Origin: Microthyrium microscopicum
Taxonomy: Eukaryota
Direction of reading: 5' to 3'
Length of the DNA: 64,000 nt
Assembly: GCA_010405405.1 (NCBI GenBank)
Contig: MU004241.1
Span: 248,001 to 312,000 of the forward strand
Shown here: in pieces, positions 32,832-40,869 of the stretch
Numbering within the stretch: the first letter of the stretch is position 1
Layout of the letters: the number at the start of each line of letters is the position of its first letter
The notes under the pieces: generated by a model
Seen by the model: the letters and a program-made list of their open reading frames with translations, nothing else
The model's database searches: none
Told to the model about the DNA's origin: nothing
Translations under genes and position numbers: made by a program

Positions 32832-34754
32832 CTAATCGTCTCCGTCACCCTCATCCTCAGCAACCCATTTGCCCACATCGCTCACCACATATGTCAGTAT
32901 ATACGCTTCTGCTCTGAGTACCTCTGCCTCCGTCGCCAGCACCACCTTTGAATCGTCAAACAGGAACCACTGTTTGCCCTCGCGCGAATAATTGACGTAA
33001 TGACCGCTATTCATTTCGCCCTTATGCACGATGACGGTAGCGAGATCGTAAGAGAGGAGTTTGGGCGACCAGTGCTCACGCGGTTGTGAGAGGAGAGCGG
33101 AGTAGCCTGTTGATGAGTCTGAGGTTGTGCCGTTAGTTTTGCCATTGGTGGTTGATGACGAGGTTTCGGTAAAGGTTTCGGGTGAGTGATATAGAGTGGT
33201 ATATGGCATCATGTCAAGAACCAAGGGGAATTTGACGGGTGTAGTGACTTTTGAGGATTTGTCCTTTAGATGGGAAAAGCGCTATAAGATCAGCTTAGGC
33301 TCTTGTGAAAGATGAGGATGTTTGTTACCTTAAGATGGATGCTGAGTACTGGAGGAAGTTGGAGAAGGGTGAATTGCTTCGTGGAGACTCCTTGTGTGGC
33401 GCATTTCTTGCAGGTGTAATCCACGGCTGCTAGCTTTTCTTTCGAGGTGTAGTATTTGAGACATTCTTCGAGGCGCATTGAACTCTCATTAGCAGCGCCC
33501 TTGCTGTTCTCGCCGTTTAGCTTCTTCTTAAGTTGCGACGTGCGGAGATCCAGCGAAAGGTCTAGAAACGGGTCATCTGTAGTGGTTTTGTTATTACACT
33601 TGTCACAGATTACGTCGCTTCGAAGACAGCCGTAAAATGTTTCGTGAAAGAAGCAGTGGCAATCACTGGTCAGGCTACCGTTTGTGACATGAAGGGCGTT
33701 GATCAGGAATTGCATATACTCGTGGGCATCTTGCTGTTTGTAGCCGGCGAGCTCGCTGTTTTGAGCCTAGAATTCTGTTAGAGGAGTCGAAAAAATCGAA
33801 GAAATCAAGGTACCTCTGCAGTCTTCCAGCTATTCATTAGCAAGGTCACGGCACCATAACCCTCAGTTTTCTCCAGACTGAAAAACTCGGTGAATATTTC
33901 GTCCAACGAACAGCTCAGGCAATTGTCGTGCTCACACAGTTCACCAGTCTTGTGACCATCAGTCAAAAAGAATGATTTGACCAACGGGTTGTGTAGTAGA
34001 CTCTGTATCACCGCGCTCATAAAGCAGGTGTTTCCCATATTGTATAAGCCTCGAAGACCGATGGCACGGCATGGAACGTGGGTGGAGTTTGGAGGAACGG
34101 ATCTGGAATCTTCGGAGAACTCGTCAAACTTTCGTTTTCGGCCTAGTATGGTCAGTAAAGTGAAGCAGTCAAAGAGATGTGCTGTGGAATTACCATTATC
34201 TAATCGTATAGTCTCGAATAGGGGATCGTAGACGTAGTCTTCGCAATTTGAGCAGTAGAGAGTGCCATTCCTAGAATTGACGACTTTGCAGCCTGTTAGC
34301 CAACATGGGAGGCCAATTCAAGCTAGGTTACTAACAGAAAGAATGTTTTTTTACATCCAAATGACTCTTTCGAGCCTCCTCCGAGTATATGAAAGGGCAT
34401 TGGACGCAGAGGAAGGTGGGTCGAAGGACAGTGATCGCAACATTTTTAGTGTTGAGGCAAGTTTGAAGGACGATAGGATGTTTGTCGCGGATGACTTGGA
34501 TAATCTCTTCGTAGCGCTCTCGGAGAGTTTTGAAGCTGTTCTCGCCAGCTTTGTGGAATTCTTCGATGTGATCTGTGACACCAGCGATTAGTAGGTACCT
34601 TGACCAGAGGGAGCGCGGACCTACTGCATCCAAAGGACGCGTTAATGCAGCCTCCAGTACTTGCAGGAAGGGTGGATTTGTTCCTCACAAGCTTGGGAGA
34701 GGCGAGCGGAGCAGATGTGAGGGACTTTGGGGTGGCAGTAGCAACGTCTGCCAT
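32832..34754 (-). CDS. UBP8: SAGA deubiquitinase Ubp8 (ZnF-UBP plus USP domain), multi-exon
   Basis: N-terminal CVQC...H...H...LYCSNCEDYVYDP; Cys box GLRGLYNMGNTCFMSAVIQ; QQDAHE; His box VHKGEMNSGHY...WFLFDD. Confidence 0.9.
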
Positions 34755-35324
34755 GATGTGGTTTGCGGAGGTCGGATGCGGGATTACGGCAACATGATCT
34801 TGGGAAAAAAGTTGGTGAAGGTGCTATGGACCGCGAAGATATGTGTGGTATATAAAGCTACTGGTGCGGTGGCGAAGAGGGTGAGGTGAATAGAGGATGA
34901 ATATGCGGTTGGTGTACCATCAATGAGATCAAGTGAGGATTGGAGGCAGCTGGATGCGGAAGTAGCGACTTGAAATCTGGGGTTGGTGGTGGTAGCTTCC
35001 GCTTTGGTGTTGAGCTCTCATCCATCCCTCTACGGTTTTGGCCACCATTGGCACCATCTATGGTACAGTATAAACTTAGTTTCTGCATTATCTACTAACA
35101 AAAAATATAGAGCCTAAGAATATATCTAGTCTCTTGGTAAGACTATTTCTAAGTTCCTTTACAAATTATCTGACACGGGTGTGGCTGAGTGACGCTGCCT
35201 TTTGGGACTGATTTTATGCGCTATTACTGGGGACAAAGTGCCCGCATCCACTTCCTAACTCGGGTTATCGATACAGCCACGTTGACTCAGCAAAATCTTA
35301 CTCGGCTCAACCCTGCCTCAATTA

Positions 35325-35496
35325 TGCTCAGCCTCAACTACGCTTGCTCAGGCTTCAAATGTTGCTCAAGATAAATCATGGTGCCTCAGGCTGCTCATGA
35401 TTGGAATCGCCGTGCCTTTTCAAGCATGCGAAACATGACTACATAGGAAAAGCAAATGAGTCTGTTGAGGCCGTCGCTAAATTTTTGGCTTGAGCA
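35325..35496. repeat. Cluster of TGCTCA motifs
   Basis: TGCTCA at 35325, 35345, 35363, 35392 and reverse (TGAGCA) at 35491, plus several GCCTCA/GGCTCA variants. Confidence 0.6.
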
Positions 35497-35505
35497 TAGT
35501 CTAAG

Positions 35506-35520
35506 AAAAAAAATAAAAAA
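35506..35520 (-). terminator. Pol III oligo-T terminator of the tRNA-like gene
   Basis: TTTTTTATTTTTTTT on the minus strand about 10 nt past the discriminator base. Confidence 0.7.
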
Positions 35521-35529
35521 TCATCGTGC

Positions 35530-35723
35530 CGACGCCTGCAGGATTCGAACCTGCGCTCTGCACACTGTTAGATTGACTACTTGTTGCCTTCACAATAATA
35601 CGTACCCCTAAGGAAATGCCTTACAACAATCACAATGTAGCAGGGCATCGCTGACCGAATTGTTAGGACTGTTTAGATTACAATTTGGGTTGCTCTCACC
35701 GTTAACCACTCCGCCAAAGCGCC
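35530..35723 (-). pseudogene. tRNA-Ser-derived gene with degenerate anticodon/variable arms and a ~105-nt internal insert
   Basis: 5' GGCGCTTTGGCGGAGTGGTTAACG (A box); 3' GCGCAGGTTCGAATCCTGCAGGCGTCG (T arm, B box, 7-bp acceptor stem, G73); no CT-NNN-A anticodon loop. Confidence 0.8.
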
Positions 35724-35910
35724 GATTAGTGTTATTGTTATTGAGTTTTCAAAGACTATATAATCAAAGTAATATTATTAGATGCGATATGCCATTCTTT
35801 CCTTTGGTCATCATGTCTAACCCCGCCACTGACATGTCCAGTTTGGCTGTTGTTGTTCTCATATCAAACATCTTCAACCATCGTACAACATAGGTAATCC
35901 ACCAGCGAAA

Positions 35911-38664
35911 ATGAACGGAGTAGCGCAAGGTTTAGAACCGCCACCCAAACGCCAACGGAGGGATCCATGTTCCGAGGTCTTATCTCGAGGCACTCTCCCA
36001 ATTGCGTGCTTCATACCTTTATCTACGGAGATTCGTCTCATGGGCCAATTGATTCTTCCCCATCCTCGGGACTACTTCTCAGGTGAGCTTGGCTGGTGTC
36101 AACAAGTGCTCGACATATTACCAGATCTGCGGGCATTAGAATGCAGGGACTTGCGCGGTGGGTACAAAACTACTCGTATATAGTCGCGCATGCTAAACTG
36201 TCATTCTGTTTAGAGCTGTCATCGCGCCCGATACTTGACTCAACTTTACCTCAAAAATTTCTAGAATTGGCTAGTCGGGAGCAACGCGTATGGGCAGATT
36301 CTGGGAGCGCCCCAGAGCATAAAACGCATTTGGTTCAGCCTTCCGGCTCTCTGGATGCCTTGTTGGCTCATCATCTTCACCAGCCGTCTCTAGCCACGTC
36401 TACACCGTGTAGTCCCGTCACTGCGGACAGAACAAACGTTTCGATCTCGATGGTCATGGGAAATGGCTTTCGAGAGGGAAACACGCTGATTTACGATCAA
36501 ATACATAGAAGATCGAAAGACTCGGATGGCCTGAATAACTATCCAGAAAGCGTCATTCAGGCCCACGAAGACTTTACTTACCAATTGATGGAATCGTCCG
36601 CCGCCAAAGTGGAGATTATATACGGCAGACCAGTCCAAAAGAGGATCATGAAAAGGCTGAGAATGACTATTATTCCGCTTTGGGAGCGATTTGAAGGTCT
36701 TTTTCTGTTCCTTCTCCACGAAGGAAATTTCGTGAATCACAGCCAGGATTTCATGTTCCGGAAGGTCCTTGTGTTTGCCGCGCATCCGCAACGATTGCTT
36801 TACGCGGCCAAAGGGAGTACGGAATCAGTACGTCAGGACAAAGTGCTGGAGATTGCTCTCCAGATAGCGGATCCATCCATTATTTTTGATCCCAAGTACT
36901 ACCAAAACAGGGAATGGGAACCCCACGTGAAAAAGGCAAAGAACTTACGGAATGTGGGTGATTCTCTTCTGAGGGCACATTTATATTCTCTTCAAGACCC
37001 GGTAAGGCCGCACGAAATACCAGAAGCTCAGTCTCCGAAAGCCTCAAGCCTCATTTCTGACAACCGCCTCGAACCTTGGGATAGAGTATTCAACGCACGT
37101 CCACATAGCAGTCAGATGAGTAGGACTCTTCTTCCTCACGCATTGGAAGCCATCCGGTATAACGAAGAGGAGGAGTGGAAGCACCCCTCTGATTTCCATC
37201 CTGCGGTAACTGCGTGGTTCAAGGGCCAAAGAGATGTCTTCTTCTACCAGACTCCCCTCCGAGATATCAAGGATCTGCTTGCTGCGGTTCGATGCCATGA
37301 AACCCCGCTGGATGAGGAGAGTAACTGCAAGAAACACGATTTGAGGTGGACTTTAAAGGCTCTGATGCTCGCGCAAGATCGATGTTTTCGTTCAATTAAA
37401 GCATCTAAGCATGACGAGAAACTTTTCCACCGTGTTGGTGCCGGGTCACTTGCAGTCAGCTGTCCTTGCGGATCCATCCGTTTCGACGACTTGGAGCCAA
37501 GGTTTTCTTGTTCGAGACCGAGTGCCTACGTGGTCAGAGAGCGAAATTGCATTATGCCTGAATGCAATCCAAAATCGGTACGGCGCGGAACCAGACAGCT
37601 CATGATACCGGTTTCCAAAGACCAAGAATATGTACGGGCGAAACTTCCCGATTTAGACTCCGAAAAGGCTCGCCGGATTCCTGGTGAGCTCTTCCTCTCC
37701 TTGATTCGAAGCCCAACGGATCAGGGACCACCCATTACGCTTAATGCAGTCGAATTGTGGTGCATGAGATGCAGAGAAAGAACCGAAATGGTAGATGGGC
37801 TCGCATCCTATTTTGATACCTTCCCAAGGTGGACTATTGGATTTGTGCGGCCTCTCTACATCGAGAGAAGACCACACTGCGTACGGTGTGAAAGGTCAAA
37901 TGGTATCCCAGGCCGCAACTTTCTACCAAAAGATGATTCTCTGCCTTCAATCAGCCCCAGGCGTCTCAGCCGGTTCTTGCAAAACTACGGAGAGTATGAC
38001 CAGGTCATACAGGCTGCGTTACTAGACAGTTACCTTCCTTCCTCAAATGTTCTGTCAGACCAAGACGCGACGTCCGTGGCTGGAAGCAGTGACCAGCTAA
38101 AGCATCATGAAGCTTTGGGCAATATGGAAATCGAAAACAAGATGATTAAGGTAGTCACAGACACTGCAGGTATGAACAAATAATGTGCTCAAGCCAGATC
38201 TACGCTAATAAAATGTTGCCTCCGTCGAAGCCATGGCCGATGAAAGGACGACAGTCCACAAGTCACGAAAGCCTCTTCGGATCACGGACGGCGCAACATC
38301 ATTCTTGCGATTAATACGCGGCCCCAAAGACTGTGGCGACCTTCCAGCACAGGTTCGGATTTGGTGTAAAGTTTGCAAACATATGACGAAGCTTTCACCC
38401 AGATCAAAGTACCAGTTCGGAGAAAGTGGGTATGTAGATAAAGCCCCAAAATGGACCATAGGCAAACCTCCAGCGTATCTCGGAGTCAAGGCTCAATGCC
38501 AGATCTGCCGCAAATCGCAGATTGTGGCGGCAAAAACATCAATTCCGACAATCATGACAAACGGCCTCAGAGATTGGGCTGACCGTCATGCGCATCTTTC
38601 GAATGAGCAGGCCCTTGAAGCGTTGGAGCAGCGCGCGGCGACTTCCCTTCGACGAGCTATGTAG
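35911..38664 (+). CDS. Uncharacterised ~878-aa protein: NLS + putative UDG-superfamily domain + three Cys4 repeats (exons 35911-36157, 36214-38169, 38231-38664)
   Basis: Introns 36158-36213 (GTGGGT..GCTAAAC..TAG) and 38170-38230 (GTATGA..GCTAAT..AAG) fuse three ORFs in frame; PPPKRQRR; PSGSLDALLAHHLHQPS, AKVEIIYG, AAHPQRLL; repeated CxxC modules. Confidence 0.75.
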
Positions 38665-38804
38665 GAAGACCAAGTTCCTCAACAGCCACAGACTAGATTG
38701 GAAGGCGAAGCAAGAAATGACGGCTTCAGGAGAGCTGTCAGGGAGTGGGTGATTGGGTGAGACCTAATGAAAACGAAGTCAGTCCAAGATAAATAGTAAG
38801 CTCT

Positions 38805-39035
38805 AGTAGAAGAAAGCTACGAGGAGAGGAAAGCTACAAGACACACTTCTCCGTGGAGAGACGCGCTCCGAGGAGGGAGGCTTCAAGGAGAGGCTCTCTC
38901 CATAGAGAGAGCAGCCAAGGAGAGAGGGGCTTCGTGGAGAGACTCTCTCCGTGGAGAAATCTATCCGAGGAGGGATGATCTTCAAGGAGAGAAAGTCTCT
39001 GTGGAGAGATTCTTCGAGGAGAGACTCTCTCCGGG
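38805..39035. repeat. Degenerate GA-rich minisatellite (~15-nt unit) with internal palindromes
   Basis: Repeated GGAGAG/CTCC units; GGAGAGACTCTCTCC at 38936-38950 and 39018-39032; ~45-nt imperfect direct repeat 38849-38892 / 38947-38991. Confidence 0.75.
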
Positions 39036-39430
39036 GCCCAGTTTCAGACCCTCTTCATGCTGCTCAGGGATAAAATCAAGCGCGATCACGCCGGCTCGCG
39101 TCAGCCCATGGCGAGCTCCAGTCACGAGTGCTCAGCCACAGCTCGAGTTGCTTACCGACAGCTCACGTTACACCCTGGCGTAACTCACGTCTCAAAACAG
39201 AAATGGACACTATATGAGGGCATGTTGTCCCCGTGTATCTTGCGCTATTTCTCACCAGCCTTGTCAAGTCTCGTACATTTATGGCTCCACAGCCAAGAGT
39301 ATATCGTATTGTATTCCAGCATGTCATATATCAGTATCACAGTCTGTAGCTTTTATTTTGTTGATCATGAGCTTTGAGCCCACGTATTCATTCCTTATAA
39401 CTTTATGTACAAGCCTACAAAAAACGAAAT

Positions 39431-40869
39431 TTATTGGTTGTCAATGACATGCAAATACTTCTTCTCCTCCCGCTTCTCCTTCTCTGTCATGGGAGGTAGA
39501 TCATAGTACACTGAACTTCGGTACGGTAGCTATCAAAAGTTAGCAAGCCGTCGTGGTATGGAGACTTTCCAGTTCTTACAAGGTATTGGAAGGTCATGGC
39601 CTCCAGTTCAGTTGGCTCAATACCGAGATCTGCAAATGTCTTTGCAGTTGGATCGATCGTCTGATCAATAAATTCCCGTTCAACCTCATCAGCTGACCCA
39701 ACTGGCCACCAGATGAACTTGTTGGCATAGTACATTATTGGTTGCCGGATTGCTTTGGGAATGTTGATGTGTCGCCGCTTCTTGACAACTTCTCGATCTA
39801 CCATCTCCGAGATATCTGCCATGCTATACTCCTTTGGTCCGTAGAGTTCATATGTTTGCGATGCGGTGGTATCATCTGTGAGCATATGCTCGAGCGCGAT
39901 ACCAACGTCAATGGCATGCACAGGTCGCAGTTTTTGTTGCAGATGATTTGATGTGAAAATGCTAGATGGTGCAGCAATTCGGTTCAGTAGTCGATCCTCC
40001 CATCCGAACATGGGCGCAGGTCTGACAATTGTGGTCTCCGGAAAAATGCTTCTTACGACTTCTTCACCTTGGGCTTTGGTGCGATAAAACACCGATGGCG
40101 AGTCTTTAGACGCGCTGTGTGATGAGACATGTACAAATCTGTCTACATCGTACTTGGCCACAGCTTCGGCGATGCGGCTAGCTCCCCAAACGTGTACATC
40201 ATCCAAATCAAAGTTTCTGTAATCATCAGCACCCGGCATGGAAGAATTTTTGGGGATCGTACTTGGTTGGATAATCGCGACCGATGAGGTTGTAGACGAT
40301 ATCAGAGTGTCTGACACTCTCTTCTATAGATTCCTTGTTTCGAAGATCCATTTCCTATGCGGTCGTTAGTCGAGAGCATGCTGTAGAGGCGCATATGTTG
40401 TACCATAAAGATGACTCGACCAAGATCTCCAGTAACCTTGAGATGGCGCTTCATCATCTCCTCCCGGTATGGAATTACGACCGTACATCCTTGCCGTGCT
40501 AGTCGATTGACAATATATCGTCCGAGAAAACCAGCAGCTCCAAAGACGGTAGCGGTATGACCTGACATGGGTTAGTCCAAAGCTCCGCGCTGCTCAAATA
40601 CGATTCGATGTACCTCCCAACGACGACCTAAAGCACACAGTTAGTTCCCAACAAGCCCAGTAACGACACCAAGAAGCTTACCGGCCACCTTGGACCTTGA
40701 TGATAGGCTTTCCAGTCCTTGTAATATGTACATCGGCGACTCCTCGATGCTGCTGGACAGTGACTGTTGTGGCTAATTGAAGGGGTATGGCGGGTCGTTT
40801 CGCGGCGATTGAGCTGGCATTGAGGCACTGCTTGGACAAAGCAAGCTGATGCCTACTTAAAGGCTTCAT
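39431..40869 (-). CDS. NDUFA9: Mitochondrial complex I 40-kDa subunit (NDUFA9/NUEM), multi-exon with 14-nt micro-exon 40614-40627
   Basis: Presequence-like N-terminus; [51 protein letters not shown]; last exon YRSSVYYDLPP...YLHVIDNQ. Confidence 0.95.

Follow-up and report, generated by a model that had tools for sequence, protein, structure and literature searches.

A putative captainless mini-Starship carrying an intron-split tRNA-Ser(GCU) gene in Microthyrium microscopicum

Two core genes of Microthyrium microscopicum, UBP8-like on the left and NDUFA9-like on the right (names read from their translations), flank an island in the window, the 64,000-nt stretch of contig MU004241.1 that was analysed. 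A sequence-only reading had placed the island at 35090..39300 and described it as a mobile or relic cassette, possibly an undescribed element, with a damaged tRNA-Ser gene, a single large gene of divergent sequence, a palindromic minisatellite and no visible transposase or recombinase. What kind of DNA is this, and is its tRNA gene damaged at all? The inventory held up, including the core genes on either side and the lack of a transposase or recombinase among the island's ORFs, as did the cassette itself, whose ends are multi-copy in the genome; the island is real, with its ends at 35220 and 39249.

Boundaries, ends and the resident Starship

35220..39249, plus strand: putative captainless mini-Starship derivative, 4,030 bp with both direct repeats counted; its ends recur in the genome
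35220..35225, plus strand: left direct repeat GCTATT, the word that bounds all five left ends
35229..35247, plus strand: left arm of the terminal inverted repeat, 19 nt, 84% complementary to 39214-39232
35220..35399, plus strand: left end, on the captain side, its subterminal repeats rich in GCTCA; a 76% match to the end lying ahead of a DUF3435 gene on C2
38848..39032, no strand: palindromic GGAGAGA minisatellite with units of about 17 nt
39034..39249, plus strand: right end, with the inverted-repeat arm at 39214-39232 and the direct repeat at 39244-39249

The direct repeat GCTATT stands at 35220-35225 and 39244-39249 in an alignment of ends, and GCTAT is common to all ten ends aligned (five left, five right), which overturns the view that no clear target-site duplication is visible. 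Used as an exact pattern, the left inverted-repeat arm has six matches in the genome, all at known ends, and in contigs of runs X6 and X12 the match to the window stops at 35220 or 39249 while the flanks beyond differ. Most pieces of X12 are low-depth and near-identical to the window and were left out, as was X9 on the same grounds; the exception was a left-end contig of X12 whose flank differs, which was used. A second small element in the genome bears these same ends and a CGCTATTTT repeat, and arrays related to the minisatellite lie in a second mini element (L018) and inside a larger Starship on C2 (L020). No joint marking an empty site was found in contigs of four runs. A candidate left end at C5:116305 was rejected on inspection. 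The 10-nt inverted match thought to bracket the island (35180-35189/39131-39140) exists in the sequence but is no boundary, its left arm lying 31-40 nt outside the element and its right arm about 110 nt inside, and none of the other four left ends has the left arm in its flank. An AT/TpA-rich edge is likewise present, at about 35080-35170, but outside the element, and the TGCTCA cluster is locally genuine (four in 73 nt, 35325-35397), although across the window the motif occurs 55 times against 51.7 expected.

On C2 the homologous left end directly precedes a DUF3435 captain gene. This captain matches PF11917 at E 4e-5, under the curated cut-off; its exons are open, and 15 of its 47 homologues carry a precomputed PF11917 assignment. 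The stretch between two C2 ends (L020) holds DUF3723, FRE and SIR2 genes, and the two ends would pair as one putative 147-kb element, a small part of whose interior was read. A PF11917 search of the whole genome gave no match, and is uninformative because the controls were silent too. Since the ends recur elsewhere, once just upstream of a DUF3435 captain, the stretch 35220-39249 is classed on its sequence as a captainless mini-Starship and not as a new tRNA-targeted element; the notion of an undescribed element falls with this, the ends belonging to a Starship with its captain elsewhere in the genome.

Starships, as described by Gluck-Thaler et al. 2022 (PMC9156397) and Gluck-Thaler and Vogan 2024 (PMC11162782), carry a captain (PF11917/DUF3435), a tyrosine recombinase encoded by the first 5' gene. 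The window element shares with them two traits at its boundaries, short direct repeats and short, asymmetric terminal inverted repeats inset from the repeat, as well as strand-specific insertion beside AT-rich DNA, unrelated cargo and a C2 sibling with captain, DUF3723 and ferric reductase genes. It differs in size (4 kb against tens to hundreds of kb), and neither a captain (ORF reading and Pfam search within 35220-39249) nor auxiliary genes (DUF3723, FRE, PLP, NLR) were found in it. Captainless Starships are known as 'derelicts', and an engineered mini-Hephaestus offers a further comparison (PMC9156397, PMC11162782, 10.64898/2026.09.21.753150); as further differences, the window element retains both ends, and its cargo includes a tRNA gene, of which the available parts of this literature make no mention. 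A two-ended derivative of 4 kb would imply that little sequence suffices to define a Starship end.

Dada transposons and bacterial integrative elements target tRNA genes, and the window element resembles them in being mobile DNA beside a tRNA gene. Here, however, insertion does not target the tRNA: the end repeat is unrelated to tRNA sequence, and the direct repeats enclose the entire gene at distances of 310 nt and 3.5 kb, which places it 130 nt inward of the left end, with no tRNA sequence duplicated or split at either boundary. Of 87 metagenomic loci with the Ser(GCU) pattern none has the end motif, and an end model was positive at none of 81, so that the proposed anchoring on the tRNA does not stand. 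It is also conceivable, if quite improbable, that the tRNA is native to the UBP8-NDUFA9 interval and came to be bracketed by Starship ends through insertion and rearrangement. The missing empty site would fit such a history, as would the tRNA-Ser(GCU) genes elsewhere, which are not near such ends, and the second genomic copy on C1, which has one end only beside it. Against it stand the direct repeats matching at both exact boundaries, the position of the tRNA just inward of the left end, the second small element with the same layout, and related pieces in run X6 (records 10 and 11) across the tRNA and its upstream stretch.

The cargo protein gene

35911..38183, plus strand: cargo gene of 738 codons with an intron at 36158-36213, skipped in run X5
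36237..36878, plus strand: uracil-DNA-glycosylase-superfamily fold, residues 33-246 of P0001 (structure comparison, Atlas)
38212..38664, plus strand: further Cys-rich repeat in another frame, a 46% match to the C-terminus of one protein, P0002

The large gene is transcribed, its mRNA intron being skipped in contigs of X5, and encodes a basic NLS-like stretch at the N-terminus, a UDG-fold domain and Cys-rich repeats. The repeat at 38212..38664 is possibly a last exon, reached either through a 61-nt intron (38170-38230) or after a frameshift; the candidate intron is retained in the X5 contig. Pfam assigned the domain to no family, whether searched with the cargo protein or with 45 aligned members, and no match came from a sequence search of PDB, whereas structure comparison aligns 180 residues with the family-4 UDG 4zbx (Z 16.3, rmsd 2.9 A, 12% identity). 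The likeness to family-4 UDG and UdgX (4zbx, 1vk2, 6ail) lies in an alpha/beta fold of about 180 residues (Z 14-16) and in an HP motif near the domain end, conserved in the consensus of the cargo family. PSG and HPQR also stand in that consensus, as possible catalytic motifs. The differences are the low identity (12-14%, with no sequence match in PDB or Pfam) and a long C-terminal helical, Cys-rich part. The modelled fold agrees with the earlier suggestion that the protein is probably DNA-acting. When the family profile was compared with the L024 ORF, the match was weak (probability 2.4%).

The gene is single-copy in the genome, and its 483 homologues (E<=0.001) are scattered patchily over three fungal classes. 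Run X6 holds a copy at about 99% (30 differences in about 2.7 kb) and leaves 34136-34987, in the left core gene, uncovered; horizontal transfer is at most suggested, since missing cover proves nothing. The patchy homologues, the near-identical X6 copy and the missing Pfam family could each be taken to mean that this gene moves an undescribed tRNA-anchored element of its own, as first envisaged. That explanation is already largely refuted and we consider it very improbable indeed: the fold is UDG-like and neither that of a recombinase nor of a transposase, the ends occur with other contents while the gene does not recur, the C2 captain accounts for the ends, and the boundaries leave the tRNA intact.

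The tRNA-Ser(GCU) gene and its inserts

35530..35723, minus strand: tRNA-Ser(GCU) gene, four exons of 24+13+16+28 = 81 nt (ARAGORN, three inserts removed)
35651..35699, minus strand: insert A in the D arm, spliceosomal-type, 49 nt, GT...CTAAC...CAG; absent from the C1 paralogue
35622..35637, minus strand: canonical tRNA intron, 16 nt, after position 37
35558..35605, minus strand: insert C in the variable arm, spliceosomal-type, 48 nt, GT...CTAAC...CAG
35506..35520, minus strand: a T6 and a T8 run that probably terminate Pol III transcription of the tRNA

In the raw window neither ARAGORN nor Rfam reports a tRNA at the locus, but exact removal of the three inserts in silico restores a perfect 81-nt cloverleaf that ARAGORN calls tRNA-Ser(gct), and the gene is hence not the damaged one it had been taken for. 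The GCT anticodon, long variable arm, A and B boxes and T-run terminator are all there, and intronless homologues show the joined form. Only 2 of 81 positions differ from the C1 copy, and the variable-arm loop is one base off the C1 and Ser(AGA) copies. Inserts A and C have the GT donor, branch site, AG acceptor and genome-typical length of U2-type introns and resemble seven RNA-confirmed mRNA introns (46-56 nt) in length and signals; the site of insert C is also occupied in the C1 paralogue and in L107, L108, L124, L142 and L178. These features suggest that both inserts are spliceosomal-type introns in an undamaged gene, and that an essential, spliceosome-needing tRNA rides on a mobile element.

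Such inserts are not confined to this locus. Read by eye, 11 of the 27 tRNA genes found in the genome hold 14 of them, all ending in AG and starting with GT (13) or GC (1). All four tRNA-Leu genes found are affected, each the sole copy of its anticodon in the search. Among 71 distinct metagenomic Ser(GCU) genes, 21 carry such inserts (again counted by eye), and in 5 of about 16 types the variable-arm site is that of the window while the interiors have diverged. Spliceosomal introns are known in fungal U6 (a Pol III transcript), U1, U2 and U5 snRNA and in rRNA; U6 demonstrates that the spliceosome can act on a Pol III transcript, and yeast U6 tolerates an A-B box spacing of about 200 nt (PMC5855946). 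The tRNA inserts share with these the GT-branch-AG pattern within a structured RNA, but here it is a tRNA that hosts them, next to a canonical endonuclease intron, and many positions and isoacceptors are occupied in one genome; that review does not list tRNAs. The literature searched, which covered few subscription papers and no supplements, reports neither spliceosomal introns in tRNA genes nor tRNA as Starship cargo.

A second Ser(GCU) locus lies on C1, and several separate searches found these two only, although a third may lie in a gap of the assembly or be interrupted inside each of the patterns searched for. Near matches from the genome tRNA searches (6; 4; 1; 4/8) were not tRNAs and were dropped. 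In the C1 copy a dead Tc1/mariner-like transposon of 1.4 kb occupies the anticodon intron, which has grown to 1,420 nt with T5 and T6 runs inside. Because this locus is broken by the relic, the element probably provides the sole AGC/AGU decoder and could not be lost. An orphan right end of 76 nt sits 745 nt upstream of the C1 tRNA, with no left end within C1:3528000-3567999, and is unaccounted for by a simple capture story.

The principal competitor to a working gene, which we judge unlikely, is a mini-Starship with a tRNA pseudogene whose inserts, spliceosomal in origin, are never removed, the decoding of AGY codons falling to the C1 copy or to a Ser(GCU) gene that escaped detection. Run X5 behaves as RNA (mRNA introns are skipped), and its contig 8 is unspliced across 35529-36156, yet omits the adjacent mRNA intron; no joint falls at the tRNA among the 15 of 19 joints listed from its contigs. 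This is weak evidence against splicing, since contigs lose rare forms, tRNAs are poorly sampled and the joints are listed in part. The failure of ARAGORN and Rfam on the raw gene points the same way, as do an RF00005 search that scored only 63 of 1518 candidates and the T5 run, a possible Pol III stop, in 3 of the 14 genomic inserts (none in the window gene). A pseudogene would, however, hardly show undamaged exons, terminator and A and B boxes, next to inserts whose interiors differ across fungi but whose GT, branch and AG persist; nor does it explain inserts in all four sole-copy tRNA-Leu genes, and its alternative decoder on C1 has T runs in its long intron.

A model for an indispensable element

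The reading that we regard as probable is a non-autonomous Starship derivative with an expressed UDG-fold gene and a working, intron-split tRNA-Ser(GCU). It would have arisen by internal deletion from a Starship family resident in the host, a filamentous ascomycete, losing the captain and retaining both recombination ends, and a tyrosine recombinase would have inserted it between the two core genes at a GCTATT site; further movement could only be in trans, presumably by the C2 captain with its open exons. One passenger would be a nuclear protein with Cys-rich repeats that probably binds DNA in base excision or in the sensing of mismatches. The other would be the tRNA gene, from whose intact A and B boxes Pol III would make a 194-nt precursor; the U2 spliceosome would excise the two GT-branch-AG introns of roughly 48 nt and the tRNA endonuclease the canonical intron of 16 nt.

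A wider reading is put forward tentatively and with rather less assurance: the mini-Starship, possibly from another fungus, is indispensable through the genome's only working tRNA-Ser(GCU), which needs both spliceosome and tRNA endonuclease, and spliceosomal introns have invaded much of the tRNA set in many filamentous ascomycetes, where standard annotation overlooks essential tRNA genes as a result. The novelty here is the apparently essential, intron-split tRNA borne on a Starship derivative. If true, a tRNA as cargo together with a knocked-out second copy would be a simple path to an essential mobile element, and tRNA finders would miss essential genes in such fungi. If the inserts are spliced, these tRNAs would owe their maturation to the spliceosome, for which the literature searched has no parallel, and one would have to ask how that machinery is recruited to a Pol III transcript that lacks a cap. 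The inserts would then also provide many short, datable intron gains, such as insert A, present in one paralogue only, on which to test reverse-splicing models of intron origin. The UDG-fold passenger, finally, may shield the element from RIP by repair of U:G or T:G mismatches.

Boundaries and kinship of the element

The window covers C12:248001-312000 of a 37-Mb fungal assembly (G000), in which Starship genes, relics that look RIP-mutated and the shortness of the introns point to a filamentous ascomycete. The element lies between two genes which, recognised by eye from their translations, we take to be UBP8 (left) and NDUFA9 (right). DNA searches of the assembly with 35050-35920 and 38660-39450 gave seven matches each and recovered, besides the window's own, four left ends (C2, C9 and C12 twice) and four right ends (C1, C2, C5 and C12); the ends are thus multi-copy, in keeping with the mobile or relic cassette proposed by the sequence-only reading. 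In alignments the similarity among ends starts with GCTATT at 35220 and stops with the GCTATT ending at 39249, and GCTAT occupies the boundary position in 5/5 left and 5/5 right ends. Exact boundaries also emerge from contigs of the sequencing runs X6 (three left, three right) and X12 (one left), with other DNA beyond them. Directly inside lies a 19-nt inverted repeat (35229-35247 and 39214-39232), the core of which has six exact matches in the assembly, every one at Starship-family ends. The limits drawn earlier have to be moved: the 10-nt inverted match thought to bracket the island is off these boundaries, and the AT-rich edge counted as part of it falls outside 35220. No empty site was seen in contigs of four runs. 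Orphan ends belonging to this Starship family occur at L022 2448 (+), L023 2310 (+), L024 7668 and L017 4301-4376, on C12, C9, C5 and C1, respectively; at the C9 end a 12-nt insert separates the repeat from the terminal inverted repeat.

Two related elements in the assembly
C2:1007904-1154784 (L019, L020, L021): probable 147-kb Starship, captain apparently intact
C12:312679-315998 (L018 4999-1680): second small element, 3.3 kb, with degenerate ends, the CGCTATTTT repeat on both sides, the same minisatellite as in the window element and one gene

The left ends of the C2 and window elements agree at 76% over 211 columns. About 660 nt after the C2 left end begins a multi-exon gene. One exon hits PF11917 at E 4e-5, short of the cut-off; the last exon has 47 homologues, 15 of them with a precomputed PF11917 assignment; and the DUF3435 protein P0188 can be aligned with the two exons in their proper order. 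Read by eye, the exons are open, with GT-AG-type gaps between them, so this captain looks intact. The RIP-like right end follows 147 kb from the left end, and L020, between the two, contains genes for DUF3723, ferric reductase and SIR2 as well as a GGAGAGA minisatellite like that of the window. The captain and the other marks found at C2 are those of Starships according to PMC9156397 and PMC11162782. Partial homologues of the last captain exon, 82-89% identical over 20-28% of it, in Dendryphion, Phaeosphaeria and Rutstroemia hint at a spread across classes.

The second small element lies 25 kb from the window element and contains a RIP-like AT-rich insert; its one gene is without a Pfam match. 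The similarity of this element, and the ends shared with the captain-bearing C2 element, argue that the window element is a captainless derivative of a Starship. Lacking a captain, it falls short of a strictly defined Starship, but appears to behave like a non-autonomous one.

An interrupted tRNA-Ser(GCU) and its paralogue

Parts of the window tRNA gene
35723 to 35530, minus strand: tRNA-Ser(GCU) gene with three inserts
D arm: insert A, 49 nt, GT start, CAG end
After position 37: tRNA intron, 16 nt
Variable arm: insert C, 48 nt, GT start, CAG end

Inserts A and C carry CTAAC 7-9 nt ahead of their AG and resemble seven mRNA introns of neighbouring genes with which they were aligned; those introns measure 46-56 nt and are skipped in X5, a run that behaves as RNA. 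Removal of all three inserts in silico, the predicted outcome of splicing, leaves a tRNA-Ser(gct) of 81 nt in which every stem is complete. No tRNA splice joint is among the 15 of 19 contig joints listed, and X5 contig 8 runs unspliced over the tRNA yet skips the next mRNA intron; this is a weak argument against splicing, because contigs lose rare forms and this one may be of the opposite strand.

The paralogue on C1 differs from the window tRNA by two bases in the joined product, lacks insert A and at site C has another GT-AG insert, of 47 nt. Its anticodon intron measures 1,420 nt and encloses an AT-rich element flanked by terminal inverted repeats, of which element a second copy (81%) lies on C2; we take its stop-riddled DFNPIEVV stretch to be Tc1/mariner.

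Copies of the Tc1/mariner-like element (1.4 kb, RIP-like)
L017 5160-6560: inside the C1 tRNA anticodon intron
L021 2051-3455: second copy

Pol III read-through of the C1 copy seems unlikely, since the intron has T5 and T6 runs. Searches aimed at different gene parts found no third Ser(GCU) locus in the assembly. As AGC and AGU codons need the GCU anticodon and the only other locus found is the interrupted C1 copy, the window tRNA is probably essential.

An orphan right end lies 745 nt upstream of the C1 copy, with no left end in the surrounding 40 kb, and both Ser(GCU) loci thus have an end of this Starship family less than 1 kb away. Because no common flank is detectable, the window tRNA would be either an old duplicate or an arrival from another species. 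X6 pieces match this tRNA and the DNA upstream of it at ~87-90%, and the cargo gene at ~99%.

Split tRNA genes in the genome and in metagenomes

An RF00005 search, which scored 63 of 1518 candidates and whose list is biased against split genes, had 41 entries among the matches listed, sorted by eye into 19 RIP-like tRNA-derived repeats, 16 tRNA genes without inserts and six with them. Five further insert-bearing genes from other searches bring the total to 27 genes. By hand count, 11 of them are interrupted, by 14 inserts measuring 46-56 nt: two genes for Ser(GCU) and one each for Ser(UGA), Leu(UAG, AAG, CAA, UAA), Arg(CCG, UCU), Gln(UUG) and Val(UAC). All 14 end in AG and have a branch-like word, 13 start with GT and one with GC, three contain T5, which could stop Pol III, and every join restores a stem.

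Nine of these genes (L047, L048, L055, L069, L071/L187, L073, L188, L189, L193) account for 11 of the spliceosomal-type inserts, which lie at many different sites in the acceptor stem, D arm, anticodon stem and T stem; that of Gln(UUG) is GC-AG. In Leu(UAG) of L187 (C1:4422.4 kb) and Leu(AAG) of L188 (C2:718.0 kb) one and the same 46-nt insert interrupts the 3' acceptor strand and the bases downstream are nearly identical, whereas the other insert of each differs, a pattern suggestive of recent duplication or conversion plus separate intron gains. The Ala-CGC-like tRNA-derived repeat, with a shared tail and at least 15 mostly RIP-mutated copies, forms a SINE-like family; L053, L064, L067 and L070 belong to a second, AT-rich tRNA-like repeat.

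Copies of the Ala-CGC-like repeat
L036-L038, L044-L046, L049, L050, L052, L054, L065, L066, L068, L072, L074

Metagenomes scanned for the Ser(GCU) anticodon arm yielded 87 stretches, 75 of them distinct, and, less four chance matches, 71 tRNA genes. Spliceosomal-type inserts, of ~16 independent types, occur in 21/71; grouped by sequence and by eye, yeast-type genes have them in 0/16, a third type in 0/4 and those with the filamentous-type variable arm in 21/51. Site C is common to five metagenomic types with diverged interiors and retained GT and AG; site A is seen in none. Several genes (L107, L122, L149; L108; L131; L139) have two to three or more inserts, some exons between them being 4-7 nt. 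The tRNA-Starship link is local, as a Starship end accompanies 0/87 metagenomic loci by pattern and 0/81 by end model.

In fungi, genes for U6, U1, U2, U5 and rRNA have been found to contain spliceosomal introns, and yeast U6 tolerates an A-B box spacing of ~200 nt (PMC5855946). We found no spliceosomal introns in the accessible portions of the tRNA gene literature, nor a tRNA carried by a Starship in those of the Starship literature, including 10.1101/2025.11.25.690456 and PMC13004909. What is new is the combination of an intron-split, probably essential tRNA with a Starship-derived carrier; the element kind itself is already known.

The cargo gene

Coding parts of the element
35911 (ATG) to 38183 (stop), plus strand: cargo gene with a 56-nt intron at 36158-36213, skipped in X5
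38212-38664, plus strand, other frame: extra Cys-rich repeat, 46% to the tail of the protein P0002

Without a 61-nt GT...AAG gap (38170-38230), which the one X5 contig retains, the last Cys-rich repeat would be back in frame; this repeat may be joined via an intron or cut off by a frameshift. The assembly has one copy of the gene, for which there are 483 homologues at E<=0.001; three of the ten looked up have names (Corynespora, Brigantiaea, Penicillium). In a predicted structure built from 45 sequences (pLDDT 83.8), residues 33-246 match family-4 UDG and UdgX (Z 16.3, rmsd 2.9, 180 aligned), and Atlas agrees. The gene is a passenger rather than the mobilising enzyme; an anti-RIP role for its product is speculation. 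Inside the C5 right end, an ORF at L024 5585-6727 (minus strand) has PSG and HPS motifs that align with the UDG-like domain, at a weak profile score, and is possibly a second UDG-like Starship passenger.
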